A DNA stretch of 38,758 nt, taken from IMG/VR virus record IMGVR_UViG_2541047683_000001; one strand, written 5' to 3'. The DNA is from a virus. Its lineage: Duplodnaviria; Heunggongvirae; Uroviricota; Caudoviricetes. The position numbers and the translations under genes are program-made. Shown here piece by piece: positions 1-35,684 of this stretch. Numbering within the stretch: position 1 is the stretch's first letter; every line of letters begins with the position of its first letter. The notes under the pieces are model-generated. The model saw nothing but the letters and a program-made list of their open reading frames with translations, had not been told where the DNA came from and searched no databases.

Positions 1-1053
1 TTACGGGGTAATGCCAACCGCTGCCGCCACTTTGTCGCCATTTGGTAACGTTGCCAGTGGATTGAAACGGAGCGCCGTTTCCAAATGATCCGGTGCCAGA
101 TGCGCATAACGCATAGTCATTTTTATATCGTGATGTCCGAGAATTTTTTGTAAGGCCAAGATGTTTCCACCCGACATCATGAAGTGCGCCGCAAACGTAT
201 GGCGCAGAACGTGTGTCAGTTGACCGCGAGGGAGAACGATAGACGTTTTTTCCATCACGGATAAAAATTGAAAATAGCAGTCTGTGAAGAAATTGAACCC
301 ATCGAGCGCCATGATCTCTTCATAAAGCTCTTTACTGATAGGTATGCTTCTGTTTTTCTTCCCCTTCGTTCTCACAAAGGTGATTCGATACTTGGTGACC
401 TGTGAGCGGGTAAGATTGATTGCTTCTCGCCAACGTGCGCCTGTACTTAGACATATTTTTACCACCAGTGCCAGAATTGGGTTCTGACGTTTGCAGTCAG
501 ACAGTAATTCGATAATCTGCTCATGTGTAAGCCATGCCATTTCCTTTTCTGCGATAGTGAATTTGCGCATCTTCTCTAATGGGTTTGGAAGTGTCCATTC
601 ACCCAGGCGGGAAAGTTCTCTGAAAACGCTGCTTAGATGGCTTTGCTCCAGGTTAACAGTAACTGGGCTTGCTCCTTTCTTCCATTTTTCACTGAAGTAG
701 ATTTCACCAGTAAGGCGTTTATCGCGATAGTGAGCAAACATTTTTGAGGTGAGATCAGTTGCAAGGGGATTTCCCAAGGCGTCAACCATCAACAGCAGCT
801 TGTTGTAGACATGCTGTCCGGCAGTAAGAGATTTGCCATGTAATTTGAACCATAGCTCAACCATATCTTTCAGTGTCCGACGATCCACTGATTCGCCCAG
901 CCAGGGCTTTGCTTCTATTTCCCCCATGGTGTATCGCTCGAAGGCCAGTGCTTCGCCTTTGGTGGCGAATTGTTTACGCACACGGCGTCCGCTACGTCCG
1001 GCGGGGTAACATTCGCAAAGCCATTTCCCTGTGGTTAGTTTTCGTACTGCCAT
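1..1053 (-). CDS. int: tyrosine integrase, P2 Int-like
   Basis: ORF track 1..1068 (TTG at 1068); first ATG at 1053 preceded by GGAGGG; P2 Int-like sequence with conserved catalytic region (HVLRHTFA ... MRYAHL); stop at 1..3 lies beyond the att core. Confidence 0.9.
   Translation of the reverse strand: MAVRKLTTGKWLCECYPAGRSGRRVRKQFATKGEALAFERYTMGEIEAKPWLGESVDRRTLKDMVELWFKLHGKSLTAGQHVYNKLLLMVDALGNPLATDLTSKMFAHYRDKRLTGEIYFSEKWKKGASPVTVNLEQSHLSSVFRELSRLGEWTLPNPLEKMRKFTIAEKEMAWLTHEQIIELLSDCKRQNPILALVVKICLSTGARWREAINLTRSQVTKYRITFVRTKGKKNRSIPISKELYEEIMALDGFNFFTDCYFQFLSVMEKTSIVLPRGQLTHVLRHTFAAHFMMSGGNILALQKILGHHDIKMTMRYAHLAPDHLETALRFNPLATLPNGDKVAAAVGITP
19..41. repeat. attL: attL core CGCTGCCGCCACTTTGTCGCCAT, inside the 3' coding end of int
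   Basis: 22/23 identity with 35904..35926; flanking bases differ on both sides. Confidence 0.6.
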
Positions 1054-1083
1054 AAAAATGCCCTCCAATGGAGAGCATTTTTA

Positions 1084-1130: not shown

Positions 1131-3113
1131 TCATTTTGAGTTAAAAAAGCTTATAATTTCTGTCAGCCATGAAGGCGTATATTTTTCATTAATATCAAAA
1201 AGAGCATTGGTGTATTCTTGACAAAATTTAGTTTTATTTCCAGATTCCTCAAAATATCTTTTTATTATTAATTTTTGGCTAGTTGTCAGATCTAATATTC
1301 CAGCTGCAACATTGGACGGTAATGTGTTAATGTTCTCTATAAATGAGAATCTATTATCACCTTTCTTATAAAGTCGATGTAATGTTTTGTGGAAAATAAT
1401 CCCAGATAATACATCTTCAATTTCAGTTGGTGGAGAAACTCTATTGTCGGTGGTTTTTAGTAAGTCAGCATCACTTAAATCATCGCGTAGCAGCAGTCTT
1501 CTGATTCTGACTTGCGATATGCTGTCTGAAGTATCAAATTTATCATACGATTGATCTGTATCCAATAAACAAAAGACTTTTCCTTTTATTGCCGGCTTTC
1601 TGTCTTTTAAAGCTAAGATAAGATATGAGTAAATATCTTTGAGTGCAAATGACCCCCCAACACTTAATACAATTATATTTTTATTTTCTAAATTTTCAAA
1701 TTTAAGATGGGATTCAATGTATAATTTATCTGTACGTCCTTCGCACAATATCCAATTATAATTATTTTGTGATGTAATTGAAGTTATTATGGATTGAACA
1801 AGATCATGATTGCTTTTCACTTCTAAAGTATCTAAATATGAGCCTTTAGATTCTTTAACAAGGGTCGACAATTCATCTCGATAATACTCAAGGTTAAGGC
1901 ATTTTATCAATGCTTGATTTGGAGAAACATAAGTGGCACTACCGCTCATTGCTGCAGGAAGAAAACCATACCAATGAGTAGTACATATGGTTTGAATGCC
2001 TATTTCACTTATTTTTTTAATCTTCTCAAATTGTTTAAAGCAAGATGTCGCATGTAAAGATAACTCTGGTTCATCGACAGCTAATATTGTAGCTTGTTGA
2101 GTTTTTTTGGGATTGTCTTTTAAAAAACCTATGGCTAAATCAAGTAATGCCTTCCTTTTTTCACCAGAACTAAGATTGTGGACAGGTGTATCCCTATTGA
2201 TATTGTCAATATAATGAAGAATTTTGTCACTAAAGTAAGTTTCGATGATTTTAGAAATCATGTGGCGTTGAGTAAATGAATTCTGCCGTTGCGTCGGTCT
2301 TTTGAATTGATACTGCCCATCAAGCTTATATGATAGTTGATCAACAAAGTCATTTAAGTGACGATTTATTTCATTGATGTCACTTTTTTTAATTATCTTA
2401 CTGATTCGTTGTTGTAAGTTTTCTCCAAGTAAAGATTGCAATAACTCACTCTCTATTTTTGAATATTCTGACGTGGTAATTTCTGCAGGCAAATAAATAT
2501 AGTTATAGATATCTTTTATATTATCAAGCAAGCGATTTGATGTGTTCTTGAAATGGTTTTTCTGAGTGTTTGGGGAGCTTCCATCGGGAATTAGTTCATC
2601 AATTCTGGAATGATAATCCTCAATTGATTCAAATATTGACATATAAGATCTAGGTGCTTCATTCGCTTTTTCTTTTATGACTCCTAAAGGAATTAAAAAG
2701 TAATCTTTAGATGAGTAGTTTAACTCTAATATATTGCGATGTGATATAAATTTTTCGGCAATTGTTCGTTGCATTGAATTAAAGTCTTCACTTTCCAATT
2801 GCCATGTAATATCACTAATAACATCAAGAGCTTTATAAGTAAATGAATTAGACCTGAAGCGATCTTTACGTATGAGAAAAATTGGTACAATAAACGGTTC
2901 ACGAGTTTCGAATCCCAGACTCCTGGCATCATTATTTATATCAAGTCTGTTTATATCTGTTCTGTTAAGAACAACATCCAAAGCTTGCAATATTGAACTT
3001 TTTCCAACACCATTTTCACCAATAAGCCAAGATGAATTGTTATTCATAGCGATCGGAATATAATGTTGATTCCTAAAATTTTTGAAGTTTCTTAAAATAA
3101 CACCGATAATCAT
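1131..3113 (-). CDS. OLD-family protein: N-terminal ABC-type ATPase plus C-terminal TOPRIM-like nuclease domain (candidate anti-phage cargo)
   Basis: ORF track 1131..3116; ATG at 3113 with AAGGGA upstream, 19 nt after the repressor stop; Walker A GENGVGKSS; Walker B-like ILAVDEPELSLH; C-terminal ILCEGRTD glutamate motif and CLLDTDQ DxD motif; visibly AT-rich. Confidence 0.7.
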   Translation of the reverse strand: MIIGVILRNFKNFRNQHYIPIAMNNNSSWLIGENGVGKSSILQALDVVLNRTDINRLDINNDARSLGFETREPFIVPIFLIRKDRFRSNSFTYKALDVISDITWQLESEDFNSMQRTIAEKFISHRNILELNYSSKDYFLIPLGVIKEKANEAPRSYMSIFESIEDYHSRIDELIPDGSSPNTQKNHFKNTSNRLLDNIKDIYNYIYLPAEITTSEYSKIESELLQSLLGENLQQRISKIIKKSDINEINRHLNDFVDQLSYKLDGQYQFKRPTQRQNSFTQRHMISKIIETYFSDKILHYIDNINRDTPVHNLSSGEKRKALLDLAIGFLKDNPKKTQQATILAVDEPELSLHATSCFKQFEKIKKISEIGIQTICTTHWYGFLPAAMSGSATYVSPNQALIKCLNLEYYRDELSTLVKESKGSYLDTLEVKSNHDLVQSIITSITSQNNYNWILCEGRTDKLYIESHLKFENLENKNIIVLSVGGSFALKDIYSYLILALKDRKPAIKGKVFCLLDTDQSYDKFDTSDSISQVRIRRLLLRDDLSDADLLKTTDNRVSPPTEIEDVLSGIIFHKTLHRLYKKGDNRFSFIENINTLPSNVAAGILDLTTSQKLIIKRYFEESGNKTKFCQEYTNALFDINEKYTPSWLTEIISFFNSK

Positions 3114-3132
3114 CAATTGTCCCTTCTGAATG

Positions 3133-4068
3133 TTATTTACAAGTCATTATTACTTTGGCGATGATGTTAATTTCATCAATTTTACATTCGATCTTATTAT
3201 TCTTACTTTCTAAAGCAATTCGACTGTTAGGCAATCGAATTAAATTACGTATAGAATAAATACCATCAATGGCTACAAGCCATAAGCCATCGTTTACTTC
3301 TTCAAAATCGCTATTGATTAGGTAAATAACATTTTCAAATTCAATAATTGATATTTTGCTACTATCGTTTGGTAAAAGTGTACGATCAAACATTAAATAT
3401 CCGTTGGTAAATAGTTTACCATTGGTAATATTTTGTTTGGTTAGACAAGTTATTTGTGATTTTGCATCCATAAACATAGGACCTTCAGATTGCGAAAGCC
3501 ACCGCAGCGATGCCCCTGTTTCTAAAGCACACTTGATAATCCAGTCGGAGGGAAAAGTATCCCTCATATAACGATTGGCTAATGTACTTTTTGAGACACC
3601 AAGGTGGTCAGCTAAGGCTTGCCGGGTTTTGAATCCATATGCTTGGACAAGGCGTTCTATTGCTGCCTTACCCCCCTTATTTGGATTTATATTGAACTCA
3701 TTTCGGATGTTTTCTTTTCGAACCGTCTTATCACAATTCGAGATTTTTTTGGTTTCATGTTCATCATTGAGTTCATGTTGGTGTGAAACGCTTTCGTTTA
3801 TGCAATCGGTGCCAAATGCTAACCATTCGACAGTAACACCTGTTTCCATGCTACAAATGACAACCCAGTCTGCGGGGAACGTGTCACGTGCATATCTGTT
3901 TGCCATCGTGCTTTGGGAGATACCAATGTGGTTACAGAATGCTTGGCGGGAAGTGAAGCCGTAAGCCTGCAGAATCCGATCTATGACCTGCTGCCCTCCA
4001 CGATTCTGCATTATTAAAGCCTTCATATCATCGCTAACATGGCGAAATGTGTTTTTGTGTGTTGACAT
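3133..4068 (-). CDS. cI: phage 186 CI-like immunity repressor with tandemly duplicated N-terminal DNA-binding domain
   Basis: Two diverged copies of the module ..QAYGF..RQA...LG.S.ST.ANRY.RDTFP.DW...C..ETG...WL (about aa 25-85 and 128-190), then a C-terminal region; alternative in-frame ATGs at 4026 and 4011, true start uncertain. Confidence 0.8.
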   Translation of the reverse strand: MSTHKNTFRHVSDDMKALIMQNRGGQQVIDRILQAYGFTSRQAFCNHIGISQSTMANRYARDTFPADWVVICSMETGVTVEWLAFGTDCINESVSHQHELNDEHETKKISNCDKTVRKENIRNEFNINPNKGGKAAIERLVQAYGFKTRQALADHLGVSKSTLANRYMRDTFPSDWIIKCALETGASLRWLSQSEGPMFMDAKSQITCLTKQNITNGKLFTNGYLMFDRTLLPNDSSKISIIEFENVIYLINSDFEEVNDGLWLVAIDGIYSIRNLIRLPNSRIALESKNNKIECKIDEINIIAKVIMTCK

Positions 4069-4156
4069 ATCCGATTTGTGATCCTATTCTCCGAAATGTG
4101 AAGTTGAAGTCACGATTAATACCGGCTCACCACAAGCCAATAGGAGATGTTGCATC
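4069..4156. promoter_or_regulatory. immunity switch region between divergent repressor and apl/cox-like genes
   Basis: 88-bp intergenic region between divergently transcribed cI and apl-like genes; contains tandem TGAAGT TGAAGT and AGGAG RBS for apl; promoters/operators not resolved. Confidence 0.4.
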
Positions 4157-4378
4157 ATGACCCCTAACATTTCAATAACTCTGAATACGCCACATGTCAC
4201 AATCGAGCGTTATAGCGAACTTACTGGTCTTTCAATCGACACAATTAACGATATGCTGGCTGACGGTCGCATCCCTCGGCATCGCCTTCGGAAAGACAAG
4301 AAAAGAGAAAAGGTGATGATCAACCTTGCTGCTCTTACCGTTGATGCACTTACTGATTGCAATGTTGTATTCAACTAG
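4157..4378 (+). CDS. Cox/Apl-like small DNA-binding protein (excision/switch regulator)
   Basis: 73-aa ORF first in the rightward early operon, directly upstream of the CII homologue; AGGAG 10 nt upstream; basic C-terminal half. Confidence 0.65.
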
Positions 4379-4410
4379 TTCCATTTTGGGATACATCAGG
4401 GGTGTCGACC

Positions 4411-4920
4411 ATGTTTGATTACCAAGTTTCCAAACATCCACATTTTGATGAAGCCTGTCGTGCATTCGCACTGCGACACAATCTGGTGAAACTGGCAGAA
4501 CGTGCAGGCATGAATGTACAGATTCTGCGGAACAAGCTGAACCCAGCTCAACCTCATTTATTAACCGCACCAGAAATCTGGTTGCTTACTGATTTGACTG
4601 AAGATTCAACGCTGGTAGATGGCTTTCTGGCACAAATTCACTGCCTGCCATGTGTACCGATTAATGAGGTAGCAAAAGAGAAACTGCCGCATTACGTCAT
4701 GAGTGCAACCGCAGAGATTGGGCGTGTTGCTGCTGGTGCGGTATCTGGTGATGTGAAAACCAGCGCAGGTCGTCGTGATGCTATCAGCAGCATTAACTCT
4801 GTAACACGATTGATGGCGCTGGCTGCTGTTTCATTGCAGGCCCGTTTACAGGCTAATCCTGCGATGGCGAGTGCAGTTGATACCGTGACTGGCCTCGGCG
4901 CTTCATTCGGTTTGCTATGA
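4411..4920 (+). CDS. cII: phage 186 CII-like lysogeny establishment activator
   Basis: 169 aa starting [20 protein letters not shown] and ending ASFGLL, recalled as close to 186 CII along its length; track ORF starts upstream at 4357 but ATG 4411 matches the CII N-terminus. Confidence 0.9.
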
Positions 4921-4927
4921 GGTGCTT

Positions 4928-5224
4928 ATGCTGACGAAAGAACCATCATTTGCATCGCTGCTGGTAAAACAAAGCCCGGCAATGCACTACGGTCACGGCT
5001 GGATCATGGGAGAGGATGGTAAACGCTGGCATCCATGTCATTCACAAGATGAATTGCTGTCTGAATTGACCACGAGCAAACGGAGAAAGTCCAAATGTAT
5101 GCGGCAGAAAATGAAGTGGTTTATCACTTTCGTTACAGAGGGGAGAATTATTCAGTACCTGAAGATGATTTGCTCTGTTGCTATCCGTCGTTGTCGGGCG
5201 ATGGTAGCTACTTTTTCACGCTAA
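4928..5224 (+). CDS. Fil-like early protein (186 fil position); 3' extent uncertain
   Basis: ATG 4928 with GAGGTG 6 nt upstream, right after cII stop; N-terminal MLTKEPSFASLLVKQSP...HGW resembles my recollection of 186 Fil; C-terminal third looks non-protein-like and overlaps the next ORF. Confidence 0.45.
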   Translation: MLTKEPSFASLLVKQSPAMHYGHGWIMGEDGKRWHPCHSQDELLSELTTSKRRKSKCMRQKMKWFITFVTEGRIIQYLKMICSVAIRRCRAMVATFSR

Positions 5225-5319
5225 AGGATGGAACCTTTATACGTGGTGAAAAAGTACAAGAAGTGATGCGTATAAAGACATCACCTCTTGAACGTTATCG
5301 GCGAAATATTTATCGGTAA
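5095..5319 (+). CDS. hypothetical early protein (186 dhr position)
   Basis: 74-aa ORF with GGAGAAAG RBS 8 nt upstream; protein-like composition; overlaps the previous ORF in another frame. Confidence 0.45.
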   Translation: MYAAENEVVYHFRYRGENYSVPEDDLLCCYPSLSGDGSYFFTLKDGTFIRGEKVQEVMRIKTSPLERYRRNIYR

Positions 5320-5558
5320 CGATCTATCAGTGTCTGTATCAGATGAGTGAATTCTTGTTGTTTAACCGAACCTAAAGGAAGTTTGTTTAATTCTTCGCGG
5401 AGGAGCTCAAAAAATGCTGATTGATTTGCTGAGTCAGTTCGAAATAAGGAGTGGATCAGACCTGAAACAAGAATTCGTTGAACAGCAACCTCATCGCGAA
5501 GACTGGAGATCTCGTTTTCAAGTTGCTCTATACGCTCTCTTTCAACCGGGTTCAACAT
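5310..5558 (-). CDS. hypothetical small coiled-coil protein, antisense to the early operon
   Basis: 82-aa ORF with AAGGAA RBS 7 nt upstream of ATG; charged heptad-like sequence (ERIEQLENEISSLRDEVA). Confidence 0.35.
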   Translation of the reverse strand: MLNPVERERIEQLENEISSLRDEVAVQRILVSGLIHSLFRTDSANQSAFFELLREELNKLPLGSVKQQEFTHLIQTLIDRYR

Positions 5559-5640: not shown

Positions 5641-5982
5641 ATGGCTATTAAAAGCGCTGCGGCGACTGTTCCATTAAGCCCCGGTGAACGCCTGAATGGA
5701 CTTAATCACATTGCGGAGTTAAGGGCGAAAGTATTTGGCCTGAATATTGAGTCAGAGCTTGAGCGGTTTATTAAAGATATGCGTGATCCACGGGATATCA
5801 ATAACGAACAAAATAAACGGGCACTGGCTGCTATATTCTTTATGGCAAAAATTCCAGCTGAACGTCATAGCATCAGCATTAATGAGCTGACCACTGACGA
5901 AAAGCGGGAGTTGATTAAAGCAATGAATCATTTTCGTGCAGTGGTGAGCTTATTTCCCAGACGGCTAACCATGCCGAATTAA
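5641..5982 (+). CDS. hypothetical early protein
   Basis: 113-aa ORF, GGGGA upstream, protein-like composition. Confidence 0.5.
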   Translation: MAIKSAAATVPLSPGERLNGLNHIAELRAKVFGLNIESELERFIKDMRDPRDINNEQNKRALAAIFFMAKIPAERHSISINELTTDEKRELIKAMNHFRAVVSLFPRRLTMPN

Positions 5983-9869: not shown

Positions 9870-9885
9870 CTGTAAATATAAACAG
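9870..9885. promoter_or_regulatory. LexA box CTGTAAATATAAACAG overlapping a candidate promoter
   Basis: Perfect CTGT-N8-ACAG with AT-rich spacer (TACTGTAAATATAAACAGTG), about 45 bp upstream of the ATG at 9928; weaker half-site follows. Confidence 0.7.
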
Positions 9886-9927: not shown

Positions 9928-10116
9928 ATGCAGGACTATTTTTTGGAGTCTTTGAAGCTCCAGCGCATTGATTTTTTTCTTAAGCTTGTAGCGGCTAGTG
10001 AGTGTAGTGATGAAGAGAAGGGGCTGGCCCTGCAGTGGGTTTCTGAACTGACAGATGAACTTATGGCAAAAATCAGAACCCACGAATACAATCGCTCAAT
10101 GGATGTCATCAGCTGA
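9928..10116 (+). CDS. hypothetical small protein, first gene of putative SOS-controlled operon
   Basis: 62-aa ORF with AGGAGG RBS 4 nt upstream, downstream of LexA box. Confidence 0.55.
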   Translation: MQDYFLESLKLQRIDFFLKLVAASECSDEEKGLALQWVSELTDELMAKIRTHEYNRSMDVIS

Positions 10117-10126
10117 GGTGACCTTT

Positions 10127-10360
10127 ATGCGCATTGAAATAATGATCGATAAAGAGCAGAAGATTAGCCAGTCTACCCTGGACGCCCTTGAATCCGAGCT
10201 TTACCGCAATCTGCGCCCCCTGTATCCCAAAACGGTAATTCGCATCCGCAAAGGTAGCTCTAACGGTGTGGAACTGACCGGACTGCAACTGGACGAAGAA
10301 AGAAAACAAGTGATGAAAATTATGCAGAAGGTGTGGGAAGACGACAGCTGGCTGCATTAA
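10127..10360 (+). CDS. DinI-like damage-inducible protein
   Basis: 77 aa MRIEIMIDKEQKIS...VWEDDSWLH, DinI-like from N- to C-terminus; GAGGTG RBS; track ORF 10055 has an upstream extension without RBS. Confidence 0.75.
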   Translation: MRIEIMIDKEQKISQSTLDALESELYRNLRPLYPKTVIRIRKGSSNGVELTGLQLDEERKQVMKIMQKVWEDDSWLH

Positions 10361-10519: not shown

Positions 10520-10945
10520 CTACTTAATTGAGTCCAGTAACAAGTTACAGTTACTCTCATTGTAGAGAGAACGAGCAATTAGTGTTACCTGCTTTCCATT
10601 CATTCCCGGCTTATCCCATAACACAGCTTCTTGCGACGCCACAAATTCAGCATAATCAATTATGCGTTGTTCGTGATCTGGTTCCTCATAGCCAAAGTAT
10701 GAGAGCGCATCGTTGTAAGCGTGGTAAGCTGCTTTCTGTAATATCTTGATATCGGCTGTAGGTACTTGCTCCGTGTAGCTAGGATCTAATTGTGTGCTAC
10801 TGCCATAGAATGCACATGAAAGGTAAGATATTGATTTCTGTTGAGCTTTAGTTCCTTTCTCATAGTTTTTAGCTGTTACCGCCTGAACTGGGACGCTAAC
10901 AAAGCTTGCAACCAGAATTAAAATTAATACGTAAAAGCTTTTCAT
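10520..10945 (-). CDS. hypothetical secreted protein (moron-like cargo)
   Basis: N-terminal Sec signal peptide MKSFYVLILILVASFVSVPVQA; GAGG RBS; visibly AT-rich; opposite strand to neighbours. Confidence 0.65.
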   Translation of the reverse strand: MKSFYVLILILVASFVSVPVQAVTAKNYEKGTKAQQKSISYLSCAFYGSSTQLDPSYTEQVPTADIKILQKAAYHAYNDALSYFGYEEPDHEQRIIDYAEFVASQEAVLWDKPGMNGKQVTLIARSLYNESNCNLLLDSIK

Positions 10946-11306: not shown

Positions 11307-11382
11307 CGCGCGGTTTGACTGAAAAGTTATGATAAATCACAATTAGGTCTAGTTAGCATTTTTTCTTTTCATGGAGACAACT

Positions 11383-11883
11383 ATGGAACAGGATTATATA
11401 GATCGTGGCTTTGGTTTATGGTCAAAACCTGGTGTCCCGCGTAAGGGATGGGTAAACGTAGGAGTGGAAGACCTAGAAGAAAGTCGAAAAATTTGTGATA
11501 TGTGTGGGAAAACAGAGATAAGGTATGTCCACATAATGTCACATGAGAATTACCCAGATTACTTAGAGGTAGGGTGCATATGCGCTGGTCACTTGGAGAA
11601 TGATTATGATTCTCCAAGAAAACGAGAAAGTGAAATTAAAAGTCGATCAGCCAAAAGAAAAAGATGGTGTAACTTACCTTGGAAAATATCTAAAAAAAAT
11701 CAATTTTACATAAAAAAAGATGGATATAGCATCATCATTCTCGACAAGGGTGATTATTTTATGGGAATGATAGTTGACGAGAGAACGCAAATTAAATATT
11801 GGACTAGAGAATGTAAAGATACTAACGAGGCGAAATTACTTTCATTCGATAGAATAACAGCGCTAATGGCAAGCTCTAAATAA
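11383..11883 (+). CDS. zinc-ribbon-like protein, first gene of a two-gene accessory cassette
   Basis: ATG 11383 with GGAGA upstream (track ORF starts 11371); cysteine cluster CDMCGK...VGCICAGH; lysine/arginine-rich tail; AT-rich. Confidence 0.65.
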   Translation: MEQDYIDRGFGLWSKPGVPRKGWVNVGVEDLEESRKICDMCGKTEIRYVHIMSHENYPDYLEVGCICAGHLENDYDSPRKRESEIKSRSAKRKRWCNLPWKISKKNQFYIKKDGYSIIILDKGDYFMGMIVDERTQIKYWTRECKDTNEAKLLSFDRITALMASSK

Positions 11884-11899
11884 TTTTAGGATTAATTAA

Positions 11900-13030
11900 A
11901 TGTATAATGTTGTATTGGATACAAACATACTCCATGCGGAAGGTATTCACTCACGAGGTATGGCAACTCTTAAAAAGTTAATAGATGAAGGCATTGTTAA
12001 AGTTCATTTGCCTGAACTAGTCGTGAGAGAATTTTCCACGAAAAAAATCACCGTAATAAATGAAGCCTATAATAAGGCGATTAATATTTTAAGAGGCACT
12101 GAACGCGAAGCAAGAGGATCCGAAGAGTCGATACTGCGAGATATTGATGAACTAAAAAACATCATAGACGACAAAGTGAAAGTACTTGATGAAAAAATTA
12201 ATGGTGCAGTTAGGCAATGGATTCAGGATTTTCGAATAAATATTATCCCGTTACATAGTGAATTTACATCAACTGTTTTTGAGAACTATTTTTGTGGCAA
12301 TGGTGTTTTTAAATCGAAAAAATCAAGAGAAGACATACCAGATGCTTTCATTAGCCTCAGTATCGAAAAGTTGCATGATGAAGTCGGTGAATTAATGGTT
12401 GTACTCAAGGATGCGTTGTTTAGAAAGCATTTGTCTGGCTTGGATGGGGTAAAAGTTTATGATAGCTTAGATGAACTTTTCCAATTGCCTAACATTAGAG
12501 CCAGTTTAGAAAATGAAGCCGCATCCTCTTTTTTGACATCAAGTTTATTCAGAACAGCGTTAGAAAACTTCTTACAGCAGAAACCGAATTATTTCGAAGG
12601 ATTCTATCTTGAGATTACTGAGGGAACAGAACTGCTTGCTGATTGGGTTATTGGTGCACATACCGAAATCAACGATTATGGACAAGTAAAGGATATTACA
12701 ATAAGTGATGTAATCAGAAAATCTGAAAGTAACTATTCAGCAAAAATTTCTTTTAAATTGGACTCTAATATCTCTTATGTAACGGATTACGGTGAAGTGC
12801 TTAAAATAGAGAGAGATAAAAACAGAAGCGCGGATTGTTGGAGTATGACAGGTGATGGCATGTGCGATCTTAATGAAAATGTGAATTTAACCTTGGAAGG
12901 TGACTTAAGTATTACCTTTCAAGGTGATTTCAATACATTGAAAAAAGAAGAATCCGAAACTTATTTGAATGAAAATGTTATTGTTATGACAATAAGTTTA
13001 TATGAGGCTATTATAGACAAAGTTCTTTGA
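11900..13030 (+). CDS. PIN-like domain protein, second gene of the cassette
   Basis: 376 aa; N-terminus MYNVVLDTNIL typical of PIN-fold first acidic residue, later EDIPDAF; AGGA RBS; 17 bp after upstream gene; AT-rich. Confidence 0.7.
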   Translation: MYNVVLDTNILHAEGIHSRGMATLKKLIDEGIVKVHLPELVVREFSTKKITVINEAYNKAINILRGTEREARGSEESILRDIDELKNIIDDKVKVLDEKINGAVRQWIQDFRINIIPLHSEFTSTVFENYFCGNGVFKSKKSREDIPDAFISLSIEKLHDEVGELMVVLKDALFRKHLSGLDGVKVYDSLDELFQLPNIRASLENEAASSFLTSSLFRTALENFLQQKPNYFEGFYLEITEGTELLADWVIGAHTEINDYGQVKDITISDVIRKSESNYSAKISFKLDSNISYVTDYGEVLKIERDKNRSADCWSMTGDGMCDLNENVNLTLEGDLSITFQGDFNTLKKEESETYLNENVIVMTISLYEAIIDKVL

Positions 13031-20992: not shown

Positions 20993-21428
20993 ACTGCAGA
21001 AGGTGGACGACTGGCTGAGTGCTTTGTTGGCGAATCTGGAACCAGCCGCAAGAAGCCGCATGATGCGGCAGCTGGCGCAGGAACTGCGTCGGACACAGCA
21101 GCAGAATATCAGAATGCAGCGCAATCCAGATGGCAGCAGTTATGAACCTCGACGGGTAACAGCACGCAGTAAAAAGGGGCGCATCAAACGTCAGATGTTT
21201 GCAAAGCTGCGCACCACAAAATACCTGAAAACTGCCGCCAGCGCCGACTCTGCCAGCGTACAGTTTGAAGGTAAGGTGCAGCGTATTGCCCGTGTTCACC
21301 ATTACGGCCTGCGTGATCGCGTCAGTCATAAAGGGCCGGAGGTCCGTTACGCAGAGCGTCGCCTTCTGGGTGTGAATAATGAGGTGGAAACAGTCACTCG
21401 TGACACCCTTATGCGCTGGCTGGGTTAG
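20985..21428 (+). CDS. S: tail completion protein (P2 gpS-like)
   Basis: 147-aa ORF following R, GTG start; gpS-like. Confidence 0.85.
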   Translation: MAELQKVDDWLSALLANLEPAARSRMMRQLAQELRRTQQQNIRMQRNPDGSSYEPRRVTARSKKGRIKRQMFAKLRTTKYLKTAASADSASVQFEGKVQRIARVHHYGLRDRVSHKGPEVRYAERRLLGVNNEVETVTRDTLMRWLG

Positions 21429-22330
21429 AGACTAATTTCTAACTCAGTCAATCTATTTCTTGCGTTATCGAGGTTAATCTCATCATGGATTGCTTTTCCT
21501 GCCCCGTCAGCAGAAGGGTATATGCTAGCCGCACTGAACCCTGCTTTATTAAGAAGCTGGTAAGCATTGTATACTTCTTTTATGGGGAGTGTGTATTTAA
21601 AGAATACCGGGTGCGGGAAATCCCCAGAAAGCTCCTCTAGGCTATGAATTGTAGCTGTCCGTCCTCGTCCGCCAGTATGTGGATGAACGCTAAAAAGCCC
21701 AAATTGCGCCGCTAAGTGCGGACTGATAGAACCTGCTGTTGAATGCAATTTTATTTGTGGGTGAAGATTTATAAACTCTTTATTAAAGGCCCATATGGCT
21801 AATTTACTGGATGCATTCCAGTTTTTATAATTAGCAATGCAGGAGCTAACTGCAAAGTAAATCGCTATGTAAGGGATTCGAGTCCAATCTAACAATCTTG
21901 TTGGCACGCCATGATGCTGTGCGAGAGCCATTAAGTCGAAAACTTCTGGATTTGGCCAAGATGATGGATTTATAAGCCAATAATCTTGATTATTTATATC
22001 TAAATGCAATCTGCGGAAGTCAGGGCTATTACCGGGGATACGGACACCTACTCTGTCACAGTGATGCACAAAAGACATTAATGTTATTATCTCGCTTGCA
22101 ACAATGTCATCCGACGTAGGTGATGTTCTTCTTGTTAAATATTGCGGTGGATTACGAAGTGCTGATGGGATCAAGCTCCAGTTGGCATCACCTTGCCCTC
22201 TATAAATAATATTATCTTTACAGTTTGGGTCTATCTTTTGTGTCGGTGATAGAGCATCCCAAAGTTCAGCTGCATTGTTAAATTCGCGTAGTGAAAAAGT
22301 CGGGTATTTACGTTCGCTCATTATTTTCAT
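21425..22330 (-). CDS. FRG-domain-like protein inserted antisense between S and V (candidate defence cargo)
   Basis: Track ORF 21425..22366 starts at GTG; first ATG at 22330; motif IIYRGQGDANWSLIPSALR resembles the FRG-domain signature; stop codon overlaps S stop; no clear RBS. Confidence 0.6.
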   Translation of the reverse strand: MKIMSERKYPTFSLREFNNAAELWDALSPTQKIDPNCKDNIIYRGQGDANWSLIPSALRNPPQYLTRRTSPTSDDIVASEIITLMSFVHHCDRVGVRIPGNSPDFRRLHLDINNQDYWLINPSSWPNPEVFDLMALAQHHGVPTRLLDWTRIPYIAIYFAVSSCIANYKNWNASSKLAIWAFNKEFINLHPQIKLHSTAGSISPHLAAQFGLFSVHPHTGGRGRTATIHSLEELSGDFPHPVFFKYTLPIKEVYNAYQLLNKAGFSAASIYPSADGAGKAIHDEINLDNARNRLTELEISL

Positions 22331-22339
22331 TTGTAGTTT

Positions 22340-22357
22340 TGTGTGGATAACCACACA
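22340..22357. promoter_or_regulatory. Ogr-type late activator site TGTGTGGATAACCACACA upstream of V
   Basis: Near-perfect palindromic TGT-N12-ACA about 50 bp upstream of the V ATG; overlaps the GTG-extended 5' end of the antisense FRG-like ORF. Confidence 0.5.
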
Positions 22358-22403
22358 AGTTAGCACACTGCATATTAAAAGTGACCAATGGCACTCTTAT
22401 GCC

Positions 22404-27199: not shown

Positions 27200-28072
27200 T
27201 TAACTAGCGTGTAATAAGTTGAACAGGTTTTTAGTTACTTCGTTTTTAGTACTAAAAAACATATCTTTAAGGTCAGGTAATGCAAAGAGAGCATTTGGGG
27301 CATTCGGTACAACAATAGGAGGTTCATATCCGTTGTCATACATTTTCTTTAAAGCGGCTACTATTTTTTTCTGATTTCGATTGAATTCATTCATGTCAAT
27401 AAAAATTTCTCCAGATAGTGTCCCGTCATCTTCACGTAGTATCGCTGGTTTGACACGACATATCTGATCCATTTCTCCAGTAGAAAAACCGGCAATCGCT
27501 GCATTAAATAACAAAGATGAAGTAGCCCATTTTTCATATAGTTTTTTGATAGCCATGCTTCTGATTTTTTTATCGTTGATATATCCAATGCCACTGGCCA
27601 AAACTTCGGTTAATGGATTTTCCCCGCGAGTTACTCCAGACCAATAGTTGTGCATCCAGGGCGCATTTTGCTCAAGTGGAGAGCCGAGATAATCAGTGAT
27701 CCACTCTGAATCCACCTCTGTAAAGTTCAAACCATGAAAATCAATTTCTGCAATAGTATTTTTATAGTTTTGATTTAAACTCCAACGGTCGATTGCTATT
27801 TCAGCCATTTCTTTTGTTTTGAATAGGTATATTCCGGTTAGGCGGGAAACCTTATCTCTGAAATTGTCTGAGCGAACCTTTTCAAGAGCTAACTCATTTT
27901 GTAATTTTTCATTGTGATTATCTGATAAGTATTTCCTTACTAGATTGTAGAACCAAATAGATACTCCAAACTCACTTTTATAGCAAATTGATTCAATTCT
28001 TCCTATTGCAACCTCCCAGGCAACAATTGGATTATTTAAATTTAAGTAAGCATATAGTTTTCTCTGTTCCAT
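27200..28072 (-). CDS. hypothetical 290-aa protein, AT-rich cargo at the tail fibre/invertase locus (candidate defence or exclusion gene)
   Basis: Track ORF 27200..28171; ATG 28072 with AAGGAAA RBS (upstream extension is AT-rich and RBS-less); globular-looking, not fibre-like; no motif I recognise. Confidence 0.6.
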   Translation of the reverse strand: MEQRKLYAYLNLNNPIVAWEVAIGRIESICYKSEFGVSIWFYNLVRKYLSDNHNEKLQNELALEKVRSDNFRDKVSRLTGIYLFKTKEMAEIAIDRWSLNQNYKNTIAEIDFHGLNFTEVDSEWITDYLGSPLEQNAPWMHNYWSGVTRGENPLTEVLASGIGYINDKKIRSMAIKKLYEKWATSSLLFNAAIAGFSTGEMDQICRVKPAILREDDGTLSGEIFIDMNEFNRNQKKIVAALKKMYDNGYEPPIVVPNAPNALFALPDLKDMFFSTKNEVTKNLFNLLHAS

Positions 28073-28209
28073 TTTTATTTTCCTTATAGATGCTATGAAG
28101 GTTATTATTACATAAATGTTCGATAAATATTTTAAAGTTTTAACTATGTTTCGGTGGCAATAAATATACATTACAAGTGAAATTTATCAAGATAACAAAA
28201 GGATAGCTA

Positions 28210-28614
28210 ATGCTAATAGGCTATGTACTCGTGTCAACAAATGACCAGAACACCGAGCTGTAACTCTTTATGCTGACAGAAGAGTTGCGCCAGCATGGTG
28301 TGAATTTTAGAAGCCTGACTGACAGTATTGATACCAGTACCCCAATGGGCCGTTTCTTTTTTCATGTCACGGGTGCCCTGGCTGAAATGGAACGCGAACT
28401 GATAGTTGAACGTACCAGGGCGGGGCTTGCTGCAGCTCGCGCCAAAGGCAGAGTAGGTGGACGCCGTCCTAAGTTGACCACCGAACAGTGGGCACAGATT
28501 GGGCGTTTACTCGAGGCCGGAGAATCAAGACAGCGTATTGCACTGATTTTTGATGTGGGTGTTTCCACAATTTATAGAAAATTTCCGCCAAATAAGAGCA
28601 ATGAATCCCCCTGA
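28210..28614 (+). pseudogene. serine DNA invertase (Pin/Gin/Hin family) inactivated by in-frame internal deletion with stop codon
   Basis: N-terminus MLIGYVLVSTNDQNTEL then TAA at 28261, continuing in frame with EELRQHGVNFRSLTDSIDTSTPMGRFFFHVTGALAEMERELI...GRRPKLT (C-terminal two-thirds of an invertase); about 65 catalytic-domain codons missing; R-to-L change in GYVRVS motif. Confidence 0.8.
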
Positions 28615-34497: not shown

Positions 34498-35594
34498 ATT
34501 TCAGCTCTGAACTGCTTAACAAAGGCAACAAAACTCCCGCATTCAGCATCAGTATTGAGGGCAGGGATATCACCACTGTGCTGGATAACCGCCTGATGAG
34601 TCTGACGCTGACGGACAATCGGGGCTTTGAAGCGGACCAGCTTGATCTGGAACTGGATGATGCCGACGGAAAAATCGTGCTGCCGCGCCGAGGTGCGGTC
34701 ATTACGCTGGCGCTGGGCTGGAAGGGGCAGCCGCTTTTCCCGAAAGGGACATTCACGGTGGACGAGATTGAACACACTGGCGCACCGGACCGCCTGACTA
34801 TCCGGGCGCGAAGTGCTGATTTTCGTGAAACGCTGAATACCCGCCGTGAAAAGTCGTGGCACAAGACTACTGTCGGGGAAGTGGTCAAGGAAATAGCCGC
34901 GCGTCACAAGCTGAAGATGGCACTGGGTAAAGACCTGTCGGATAAGCCCGTGGAACATATAGACCAGACTAATGAGAGTGACGGCAGTTTTCTGATGCGG
35001 CTGGCGCGCCAGTACGGTGCTATTGCGTCAGTGAAAAATGGCAATCTGTTATTCATCCGGCAGGGACAGGGTAAAAGCGTCAGCGGTAAACCACTGCCGG
35101 TGATCACTATCACACGTAAGGACGGCGACAGTCACCGCTTTACCCTGGCAGATCGCGGAGCCTATACGGGCGTAATTGCCAGCTGGTTGCATACCCGCGA
35201 ACCCGCGAAGAAAGAAAGCACCACGGTGAAGCGTAAGCGCAGAACTAAGAAGCAGAAGAAAGAGCCGGAAGCGAAGCAGGGCGATTACCTGGTGGGGACG
35301 GATGAAAACGTGCTGGTACTTAATCGCACTTATGCCAACCGGAGCAACGCCGAACGAGCGGCGAAAATGCAGTGGGAACGCCTGCAACGCGGTGTTGCGT
35401 CATTCTCGCTACAACTGGCGGAAGGGCGGGCAGATCTCTACACGGAAATGCCAGTGAAAGTCAGTGGCTTTAAACAGCCGATAGATGATGCGGAATGGAC
35501 CATTACGACTCTGACGCATACCGTCAGCCCGGATAACGGTTTTACGACCAGTCTGGAGCTTGAAGTGAGGATTGATGATTTCGAAATGGAATGA
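34494..35594 (+). CDS. D: tail protein (P2 gpD-like)
   Basis: 366-aa ORF last in the tail operon. Confidence 0.9.
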   Translation: MNFSSELLNKGNKTPAFSISIEGRDITTVLDNRLMSLTLTDNRGFEADQLDLELDDADGKIVLPRRGAVITLALGWKGQPLFPKGTFTVDEIEHTGAPDRLTIRARSADFRETLNTRREKSWHKTTVGEVVKEIAARHKLKMALGKDLSDKPVEHIDQTNESDGSFLMRLARQYGAIASVKNGNLLFIRQGQGKSVSGKPLPVITITRKDGDSHRFTLADRGAYTGVIASWLHTREPAKKESTTVKRKRRTKKQKKEPEAKQGDYLVGTDENVLVLNRTYANRSNAERAAKMQWERLQRGVASFSLQLAEGRADLYTEMPVKVSGFKQPIDDAEWTITTLTHTVSPDNGFTTSLELEVRIDDFEME

Positions 35595-35684
35595 TTCTTC
35601 GCAATGGAGAACTTTTAAGTTTGCAAAATGGAATAATGCGGTATCATTATTGTGAATTTAGCAAAAATGGGGAGAACTCGAAAA

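Follow-up and report, generated by a model that had tools for sequence, protein, structure and literature searches.

A chimeric CI repressor with two DNA-binding domains in a 186-like prophage of Escherichia coli

The gene considered here is the cI repressor gene of IMG/VR record IMGVR_UViG_2541047683_000001, a stretch of 38,758 nucleotides (hereafter the window) that holds a complete 186-like (Peduoviridae) Escherichia coli prophage, with 100% identity to strain C4 in the part that was aligned. CI departs from the canonical 186-family layout of one DNA-binding domain per subunit: it carries two helix-turn-helix (HTH) domains, an outer, N-terminal one (NTD1) and an inner one (NTD2), followed by a C-terminal domain (CTD). 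The gene is a fusion of two immunity types by recombination, in which the inserted block is Q-derived where its origin can be traced. The names Q-type and K-type are our own labels, after the recognition helices SQSTMANRYAR and SKSTLANRYMR, respectively. The sequence comparisons are together probably best explained by a functional chimeric CI, in which NTD1 acts at the promoter pR and NTD2 may have been retained against K-type phages. The coordinates of all features are collected in Table 1.

A Pfam search returned two stretches of PF07022 (Phage_CI_repr, E 1.5e-56) and one match to PF16452 (Phage_CI_C) at residues 210-307 (E 2.3e-24), with no match to Peptidase_S24 (PF00717) in CI at E<=0.01. 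The two repeats are homologous, as an ungapped local self-alignment of residues 19-84 with 127-192 reached a score of 230 (500 shuffles gave 26.5 +/- 4.0, with a maximum of 44). An AlphaFold2 model of the monomer, built on 35 relatives, predicted two five-helix bundles at residues 25-85 and 133-193 (predicted local distance difference test, pLDDT, ~85-93), a linker at 90-130 with pLDDT ~30, a beta-rich CTD at 206-310 and, within an N-terminal extension, a helix at 13-21 (pLDDT 60-77). Its predicted template modelling score (pTM) of 0.40 implies no fixed arrangement between the domains. The best Foldseek matches to this model were the CI of coliphage 186 (2fjr_A, E 5e-17) and the 186 CTD alone (2fkd_A, template modelling score, TM, 0.89, root-mean-square deviation 1.3 A), while the fold likeness to LexA CTDs was merely distant (E 1e-3 to 4e-6). 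The 2FJR sequence aligns in one piece to residues 136-307, thus to NTD2 and the CTD (E 1.4e-24). NTD1 and NTD2 share 52% identity at the protein and 57% at the DNA level, with 23 of 65 third codon positions identical, near saturation, and must therefore be old relatives. These results bear out the first-pass annotation, made from the DNA letters alone, in three respects, as it had described an immunity repressor of a 186-like prophage, with two homologous HTH domains ahead of a C-terminal region, whose copies had diverged long ago. The protein is 100% identical to an E. coli NCBI entry named 'phage repressor protein CI'. Its start codon is annotated differently by the Prokaryotic Genome Annotation Pipeline in strain C4 (M1, at 4068) and in strain WP5-W18 (the equivalent of M20); we favour M1 because single-domain relatives lacking an alternative start use the same MST, overlapping the -35 hexamer of pR.

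The same annotation had proposed that the second HTH domain arose by tandem duplication, which is not supported because each NTD has its nearest relatives in a different lineage of single-domain CIs, and not in the other NTD. NTD1 is 65-72% identical to the NTDs of the 206-209-aa single-domain Q-type CIs of Klebsiella, Enterobacter and related genera, and with the extension included the identity to these Q-type singles is 64-72% (64% to P0119). For NTD2, the identity to the NTD of the single-domain K-type CIs, which have 196 aa, is ~88%, and NTD2 together with the CTD is 70% identical to the complete K-type single P0035. In a neighbour-joining tree, the Q-type NTD1s form one clade beside the Q-type singles, and the NTD2s are interleaved with several kinds of singles. 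A mosaic is also evident in the DNA. Comparison by blastn with the K-type single-domain prophage L059 revealed homology at 1417-3706 (70%) and at 4109-5300 (94%), on either side of a block that has no K-type counterpart. With the Q-type prophages L017 and L026, the only homology to the left of cII is at 3837-4103 (72%), which covers NTD1, the N-terminal extension and pR; no source could be traced for the linker part of the block (3707-3836). The K-type N-terminus is still visible just before NTD2, as NEFNINPNKGG here versus SEIKINPNKGG in the singles. The prophage of strain WP5-W18 is 91% identical in DNA from ~3805, at the boundary of NTD1 and linker, through the switch, apl and the start of cII, with no homology further left; the NTD1-plus-switch module has therefore recombined onto different backbones. 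The NTD1 and pR module precedes at least three NTD2 types, namely K, T (SKSTLATRY) and one with SKSTVANRY.

The candidate operators at pR are of the type that goes with NTD1. The cI start codon and the -35 hexamer of the candidate promoter overlap (ATGTCAACA, with TGTTGACAT as its complement), a layout shared by all K-type, Q-type and double-NTD loci, whose switch regions we aligned on this hexamer, and the annotation of 186 likewise places pR directly at the cI start. The first candidate operator is located inside cI codons 5-10, and the conserved N-terminal peptide (TFRH here, KYPSEI in the K-type) would therefore also be operator DNA. Repeats of the form (G/C)CGWWWTGTG(A) are common to nine double-NTD loci with Q-type sites (the window, L001, L004, L005, L056-58, L066 and L069) and to the Q-type singles L017, L026 and L024. 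In all of these O1 is kept as ATGGCGAWWTGTG, and O3 is found at +24 from the cI ATG in 9/9 double-NTD loci and in L017. The latter has all three sites at the same offsets as the window (O1 -25, O2 +4, O3 +24), and L026 has the same 29/20-bp spacing, its offsets differing merely because the alignment anchor missed its ATG. Nine K-type singles have instead of CGAWWTGTGA the sequence TCTCAYTTGGGTAC as left-hand site, at the O1 position, and (G)TNCCCAWWTGGGKAC as right-hand site; in the K-type phage 813R9, pR reads TCTCACTTGGGTAC ... GTACCCAATTGGGTAC, the right-hand site being a perfect palindrome. A position weight matrix (PWM) of the Q-type site, built from the other loci with the window's own sites left out, ranked O3 first and O2 second across the 38.7 kb. 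Exact copies of CGAWWTGTGA occur three times in the window, all within 370 bp (0.55 expected; 1/100 shuffles reached three). The third copy is inverted and lies inside linker codons, 341 bp left of O2 and thus roughly at FL distance; it was not seen in the other double-NTD loci scanned, and could be a candidate FL-like distal site. A Q-like site at 5704-5718 was set aside as uninformative, since L059, a K-type single prophage, has it too.

Four other double-NTD combinations were examined, L060 (S+K), L061 (T+N, from Edwardsiella), L062 (N+T) and L063, and in none of the four do the pR repeats match the type of the inner NTD; those of L060 and L061 were matched to single-domain phages of the type of the N-terminal NTD. 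As single-domain Q-type phages have the same sites in the same arrangement, NTD2 is not needed to explain the operators of the window, nor is a new geometry. The first-pass annotation had expected a different operator geometry or extended half-sites, and this expectation is not supported, given the shared motif, the offsets of L017 and the 29/20-bp spacing of L026. Three repeats do lie at pR, 29 and 20 bp apart, and a K-type site for NTD2 was not found among them. Its view that the gene marks a distinct immunity type holds relative to the nearest single-domain relatives.

Several observations suggest that NTD2 is under constraint and is as conserved as NTD1. Among 17 same-backbone pairs of double-NTD proteins, mean identity is 0.84 for NTD1, 0.86 for NTD2, 0.74 for the CTD and 0.41 for the linker. 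Compared with the 97.8%-identical gene of strain ECCRA-119, NTD2 shows three synonymous and no nonsynonymous changes. Across 35 proteins, 17 NTD2 columns are invariant, including those of the recognition helix and the Tyr/Arg positions, and no visibly decayed NTD2 was encountered among the homologues retrieved. We searched the whole window for a cognate site of NTD2, and PWM and pattern scans returned no K-type operator (GTACCCAWWTGGGTAC); its palindromic form gave no match at up to 3 mismatches and the other form occurred no more than by chance. The best K-type PWM hit (34-51) was rejected, as it resembles an Int arm-type site when judged by the consensus in the 186 annotation, and so was a hit at 28337-28350, which has 3 mismatches and belongs to a class no commoner than chance. 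At the position of 186 FR, TTCCATTTTGGGATAC (4379-4394) was discarded as an NTD2 site because it is conserved in K-type, Q-type and double-NTD loci alike; this sequence may belong to pE. A second exact 10-mer copy of it, at 10222-10231 inside the DinI-like gene, is probably due to chance.

We also considered whether NTD2 is kept to repress pB, the promoter of the late activator. This was rejected, as the 100 bp upstream of ogr show no co-variation. They are almost the same in four phages of different CI type, namely that of the window, the WP5-W18 prophage, a Klebsiella phage whose double-NTD CI has a T-type NTD2, and one whose single CI is of an unrelated type. In this upstream region (35585-35684, + strand), two similar repeats, TTTGCAAAATGGAAT and TTAGCAAAAATGGGGAG, flank a TATCAT -10-like hexamer at a distance of ~38 bp from each other; given the near invariance of the region across CI types, the type-specific part of CI is unlikely to be what binds there.

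The double-NTD layout is widespread. Three complete E. coli genomes have an intact cI gene identical to that of the window, two further ones have a gene of 97.8% identity, and DNA like the NTD1 coding region is present in 239 of 5426 complete E. coli genomes (about 4%). Two NTDs are found in 46 of the 120 best homologues of CI, from E. coli, Salmonella, Klebsiella, Citrobacter, Enterobacter and Edwardsiella, most of them 290-330 aa long, and the uninterrupted double-NTD open reading frame (ORF) occurs in dozens of 90%-identity clusters. For example, E. coli CFT073 carries a 308-aa double-NTD CI, and deposited Klebsiella phage genomes share the layout, including a member of the named species Elveevirus 4LV2017. 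A search with NTD2 only among 1.84 billion cluster representatives retrieved 181 families at E <= 1e-3, and at least two matched stretches were present in 33 of the best 150 of these 181. They include distant genuine doubles with Phage_CI_C (P0124, P0202, P0229) and a 330-aa protein with two Phage_CI_repr domains and a Peptidase_S24 CTD (P0263); P0209, P0223 and P0235, with 4-7 stretches, were dismissed as generic multi-HTH proteins. In Erwinia tasmaniensis (L043, 2486-3349) a 288-aa CI, ~30% identical to the query, has two very divergent NTDs. A scan of one genome per species gave mostly single-domain CIs and served as comparison set, being poor for double-NTD loci. As the layout recurs in at least four further NTD combinations, the sequences indicate that addition of a second head is a recurrent theme in the 186 CI family. 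In the searched literature we found no description of the double-NTD CI architecture, and in the databases the genes are annotated simply as 'repressor protein CI'.

A different arrangement was seen in Gilliamella, where L053 (2444-3622) and L055 (2438-3582) hold tandem arrays of two or three small separate genes. Each of these encodes one Phage_CI_repr-like domain and a conserved ~45-residue tail (…EKLERIAALKKDGAITDDEYNLLKGSIF), which we take to resemble SHOCT; none has Phage_CI_C.

The chimeric CI arose when a block of ~400 bp took the place of the 64-bp pR region in a K-type 186-like phage. The larger part of this block (the pR operators, the cI start, the 22-residue extension and the Q-type HTH) comes from a Q-type 186-like phage, and the block was fused in frame to an almost complete K-type cI, the product reading extension, NTD1(Q), a 40-aa flexible tether, NTD2(K) and CTD(K). 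Which head binds what, and the oligomerisation of the protein, we infer as follows. The 186 CI oligomer is a 14-mer wheel of dimers, and the CTD would assemble the oligomer in the window's CI. By binding the CGAWWTGTG(A) sites around pR, the tethered NTD1s would repress the lytic transcription of apl-cII, with induction presumably passing through a LexA-controlled Tum-like antirepressor. As for NTD2, it might, as a rather tentative proposal, still bind K-type operators in trans on incoming K-type phages. The lysogen would then stay immune to its parental K-type phages and a phage with Q-type operators would escape K-type repression, resulting in one-way immunity. K-type phages are the closest relatives of the window phage; among them, 813R9 uses the same rcdA-side insertion site, has the same integrase (89% nt) and shares 92-97% of the early region. 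By extension, double-headed CIs might be dual-specificity immunity repressors that evolve by domain accretion, with an operator and HTH cassette imported and the old HTH kept, which we put forward as a possibility on the weaker side. Where a relative has kept the former O1 within its cI, the inner head may provide an FL-like contact in cis as well.

The proposed role of NTD2 has to be weighed against the view that NTD2 is a passive leftover or spacer that binds no specific DNA. It might then persist because the recipient gene was fused near its 5' end, because the CTD does not fold or assemble without its native NTD, or through renewal by recombination with single-domain genes. No cognate operator was found in the window, the former K-type O1 is degenerate there, and NTD2 types have been freely exchanged behind one NTD1 clade, all as expected for a passive domain. 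Yet such a domain should hardly match NTD1 in conservation, far above the linker, accept only synonymous changes in the nearest variant, keep its recognition helix and Tyr/Arg positions invariant and leave no visibly decayed copy among the homologues retrieved; moreover, the title of PDB entry 7jvt suggests that the 186 CTD tolerates a foreign NTD, and the architecture arose repeatedly, also with a Peptidase_S24 CTD. We thus regard a passive NTD2 as rather doubtful. Alternatively, NTD2 could act in cis at the former O1 of the recipient, now inside cI at ~330-370 bp from pR, through FL-like looping or as an autoregulatory roadblock. The motif TCTCAWTTGGG is kept amid the hypervariable linker of L004, L005, L058, L060 and L069, whose NTD2 is in each case K-type. 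In L056, L057 and L066, where NTD2 is T-type, a T-like TTTCATTRTCGAAC has been retained, and the annotated FL of 186 lies inside cI at a similar distance. The site is, however, degenerate in the window and in L001, its conservation elsewhere could act on the peptide (F/Y)P(I/N)E instead, and the only distal candidate in the window (3731-3740) is Q-type rather than K-type, which makes a role in cis quite improbable for this phage.

It is also unlikely that both HTH domains of one subunit jointly read extended or composite half-sites of the phage's own operators in a new geometry. Two intact and conserved HTH domains per chain and three spaced pR repeats would suit such a reading, but the single-domain Q-type phages L017 and L026 show the same repeats, no K-type half-site exists beside them or elsewhere in the window, one NTD1/pR module fronts at least three NTD2 types, and the modelled 40-residue disordered tether would impose no fixed geometry between the two domains. 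Finally, the possibility that two adjacent repressor genes were joined by a sequencing or frameshift error, or that cI is a decaying pseudogene, is negligible, given that the same unbroken ORF is present in five complete E. coli genomes, in CFT073, in the Klebsiella phage 4LV2017 group and in dozens of clusters. The first-pass annotation had named such a frameshift fusion as what would overturn its proposal, and the occurrence of the layout in 46/120 best homologues from several genera shows that this is not the case.

A functional chimera with a retained K-type head is therefore the reading that we prefer, and some points weigh against it. The operator assignments draw on co-variation and co-inheritance. 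The singles L029 and L022 have Q-like helices and lack the CGWWWTGTGA motif; the helix alone thus does not fix the site, and residues outside it, perhaps in the extension, also matter. O2 is not clearly type-specific across the double-NTD loci, although it is Q-like in the window and in the Q-type singles. Formation of a wheel is assumed from 26-30% identity and fold similarity to 186 CI only, and cross-immunity is pure inference. In addition, the conservation of NTD2 could derive in part from repeated recombination with functional single-domain genes, since the NTD2s are interleaved with singles in the tree.

Change of immunity in temperate phages is usually thought of as co-evolution or wholesale swap of repressor and operators. 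Here the repressor has acquired a further DNA-binding head, presumably with a new specificity, without losing the old one, and such additions have occurred repeatedly. If the inner head is active, a single protein would protect the lysogen from two phage types, and close relatives would differ in their immunity to each other, with consequences for prophage competition and phage spread in E. coli, Klebsiella and Salmonella. One-way immunity, if true, would favour such a phage in the competition with close relatives for one host and attachment site. As the layout is known from at least five NTD combinations, and also with an S24 CTD, domain accretion would then be a general route by which immunity specificity evolves in the family. 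The double-headed CI is also a natural case for studying the behaviour of a 186-type oligomer whose DNA-binding domains sit on long flexible tethers.

Table 1. Features of the repressor gene, the switch region and the neighbouring genes, in window coordinates
Feature	Position	Strand	Evidence or remark
cI, 311-aa two-HTH immunity repressor	3133..4068	-	ORF list, Pfam, NCBI identity; stop codon 3133-3135
CTD, putative oligomerisation domain, residues 206-311, 186 CI CTD fold	3136..3453	-	PF16452, Foldseek 2fkd_A
NTD2, residues 131-195, K-type HTH, helix SKSTLANRYMR	3484..3678	-	Best Pfam stretch 135-199; aligns with 2FJR NTD
Inter-domain linker, residues 88-130, predicted disordered	3679..3807	-	pLDDT 29-37; hypervariable among relatives
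NTD1, residues 23-87, Q-type HTH, helix SQSTMANRYAR	3808..4002	-	Pfam, identities, tree, DNA
N-terminal extension, residues 1-22 (MSTHKNTFRHVSDDMKALIMQN)	4003..4068	-	Common to Q-type single-domain CIs; codons hold O1
Degenerate remnant of K-type O1, GAACTCATTTCGGATG (GATCTCAYTTGGGTAC in K-type singles)	3694..3709		5/16 positions changed
Block lacking a K-type counterpart, 402 bp	3707..4108		K-type prophage L059 has 64 bp of pR instead
Third exact CGAWWTGTGA, inverted	3731..3740	-	Inside linker codons
Candidate operator O1, GGCGAAATGTGT	4041..4052	+	Upstream of -35, offset -25 from cI ATG
Candidate pR, TTGACA-17-TATTCT	4062..4090	+	Promoter scan; sigma-70-type, 10/12 to consensus
Candidate operator O2, TCCGATTTGTGA	4070..4081	+	pR spacer, +4; PWM 16.9, second best in window
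Candidate operator O3, TCCGAAATGTGA	4090..4101	+	Directly after -10, +24; PWM 17.9, best in window
apl/cox-like gene, 73 aa	4157..4378	+	Protein identical in double-NTD and K-type single prophages, different in Q-type singles
cII (Phage_CP76)	4411..4920	+	Pfam E 5e-42
int	1-1068	-	Gene order
661-aa AAA_15/OLD-TOPRIM protein	1131-3116	-	Between int and cI
LexA box CTGTAAATATAAACAG, perfect	9870..9885	+	Ahead of split tum-like operon, downstream of gene A
tum-N, 62-aa ORF	9928-10116	+	Split tum-like operon
DinI-like ORF	10127-10360	+	Split tum-like operon

The genes around cI follow the order int, AAA_15/OLD-TOPRIM gene, cI, apl/cox-like gene, cII, fil, dam and replication gene A. The switch has the layout of 186, the leftward cI-(cargo)-int genes facing the rightward apl-cII operon with pR at the cI start. 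A LexA-controlled Tum-like antirepressor is the probable route of induction, as judged here from the LexA box and the ORFs behind it; the split tum arrangement has likewise been reported for PSP3 and Fels-2 (PMC3121763). The 62-aa tum-like protein is 100% identical in phages with four CI types (the window, L066, L067 and L068), and the antirepressor would therefore need to recognise something common to all of them.

The interval between int and cI is the usual cargo slot of P2/186-like prophages. In the window it holds the 661-aa protein, which combines an AAA_15/AAA_21 ATPase with an OLD-like TOPRIM domain (best PADLOC matches AriA, E 2e-22, and Old, E 7e-16), and in relatives GmrSD_N + HEPN, ASCH, and AAA_15 + DUF4276. 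Between fil and the DUF5347 gene lies an 82-aa ORF (5310-5558, - strand) with no Pfam match, hypothetical in strain C4 and absent from the WP5-W18 prophage. A two-gene insert (11371-13030, + strand) between the tum/DinI region and the portal gene encodes a 170-aa ORF with no family match and a 376-aa PIN_12 protein; neither gene was matched in PADLOC. A 313-aa FRG-domain protein (21425-22366, - strand), opposite in strand inside the late-gene block, matches PDC-S15, a candidate defence family, in PADLOC (E 1e-31). No Pfam or PADLOC match was obtained for a 141-aa ORF after the DinI-like gene (10520-10945, - strand), whose hydrophobic N-terminal stretch resembles a signal peptide, or for a 323-aa ORF (27200-28171, - strand) between the tail-fibre genes and the sheath gene.

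Among known systems, coliphage 186 CI (2FJR, CTD 2FKD) offers the closest structural comparison. It has the same pair of Phage_CI_repr and Phage_CI_C domains in the same position facing apl-cII, a matching CTD fold (TM 0.89) and a LexA/Tum-type induction module, and its pR, at the cI start, is flanked by several closely spaced sites, as with the candidate sites of the window. However, 186 CI has one NTD and 192 aa, whereas the window's CI adds an NTD and an extension on ~40 disordered residues; the two proteins are about 26-30% identical, their operator sequences differ, and the annotated FL, FR and pB sites of 186 have no type-specific counterparts in the window. The K-type singles (cI of Escherichia phage vB_EcoM-813R9; P0035, 196 aa; E. 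coli and Klebsiella prophages) have close counterparts of NTD2 and the CTD and no NTD1. In the K-type prophage L059, Apl is identical to that of the window and the cII region is 94% identical, but K-type pR carries the GTACCCAATTGGGTAC palindrome and TCTCAYTTGGGTAC where the window has CGAWWTGTGA. Conversely, the Q-type singles (P0096, P0108, P0119 and P0120, from Enterobacter, Klebsiella, Buttiauxella and Lelliottia) resemble the window in extension, NTD and operator motif, while their NTD is joined directly to its own CTD and their apl and Apl sites are different.

The double-NTD CIs of CFT073 (WP_001589054.1), of Klebsiella phages 4LV2017 and ST437-OXA245phi4.2 and of Salmonella share the architecture, NTD1 and the pR module at 52-62% overall identity, and differ in their NTD2 and CTD backbones. 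Outside this family, phiCDKH01_17 of a Clostridioides difficile phage is reported to be a lysogeny regulator with two XRE-type HTH domains (PMC11172241); it belongs to an unrelated family without the 186-type CTD, and the passage on it mentions no chimeric origin. Among the Foldseek matches to the CI model is also PDB entry 7JVT, titled 'lambda-186 hybrid repressor'. To go by this title, a foreign NTD seems to be compatible with the 186 CTD, a modularity of the kind on which the natural chimera draws, and in this engineered protein the NTD would be replaced rather than added.

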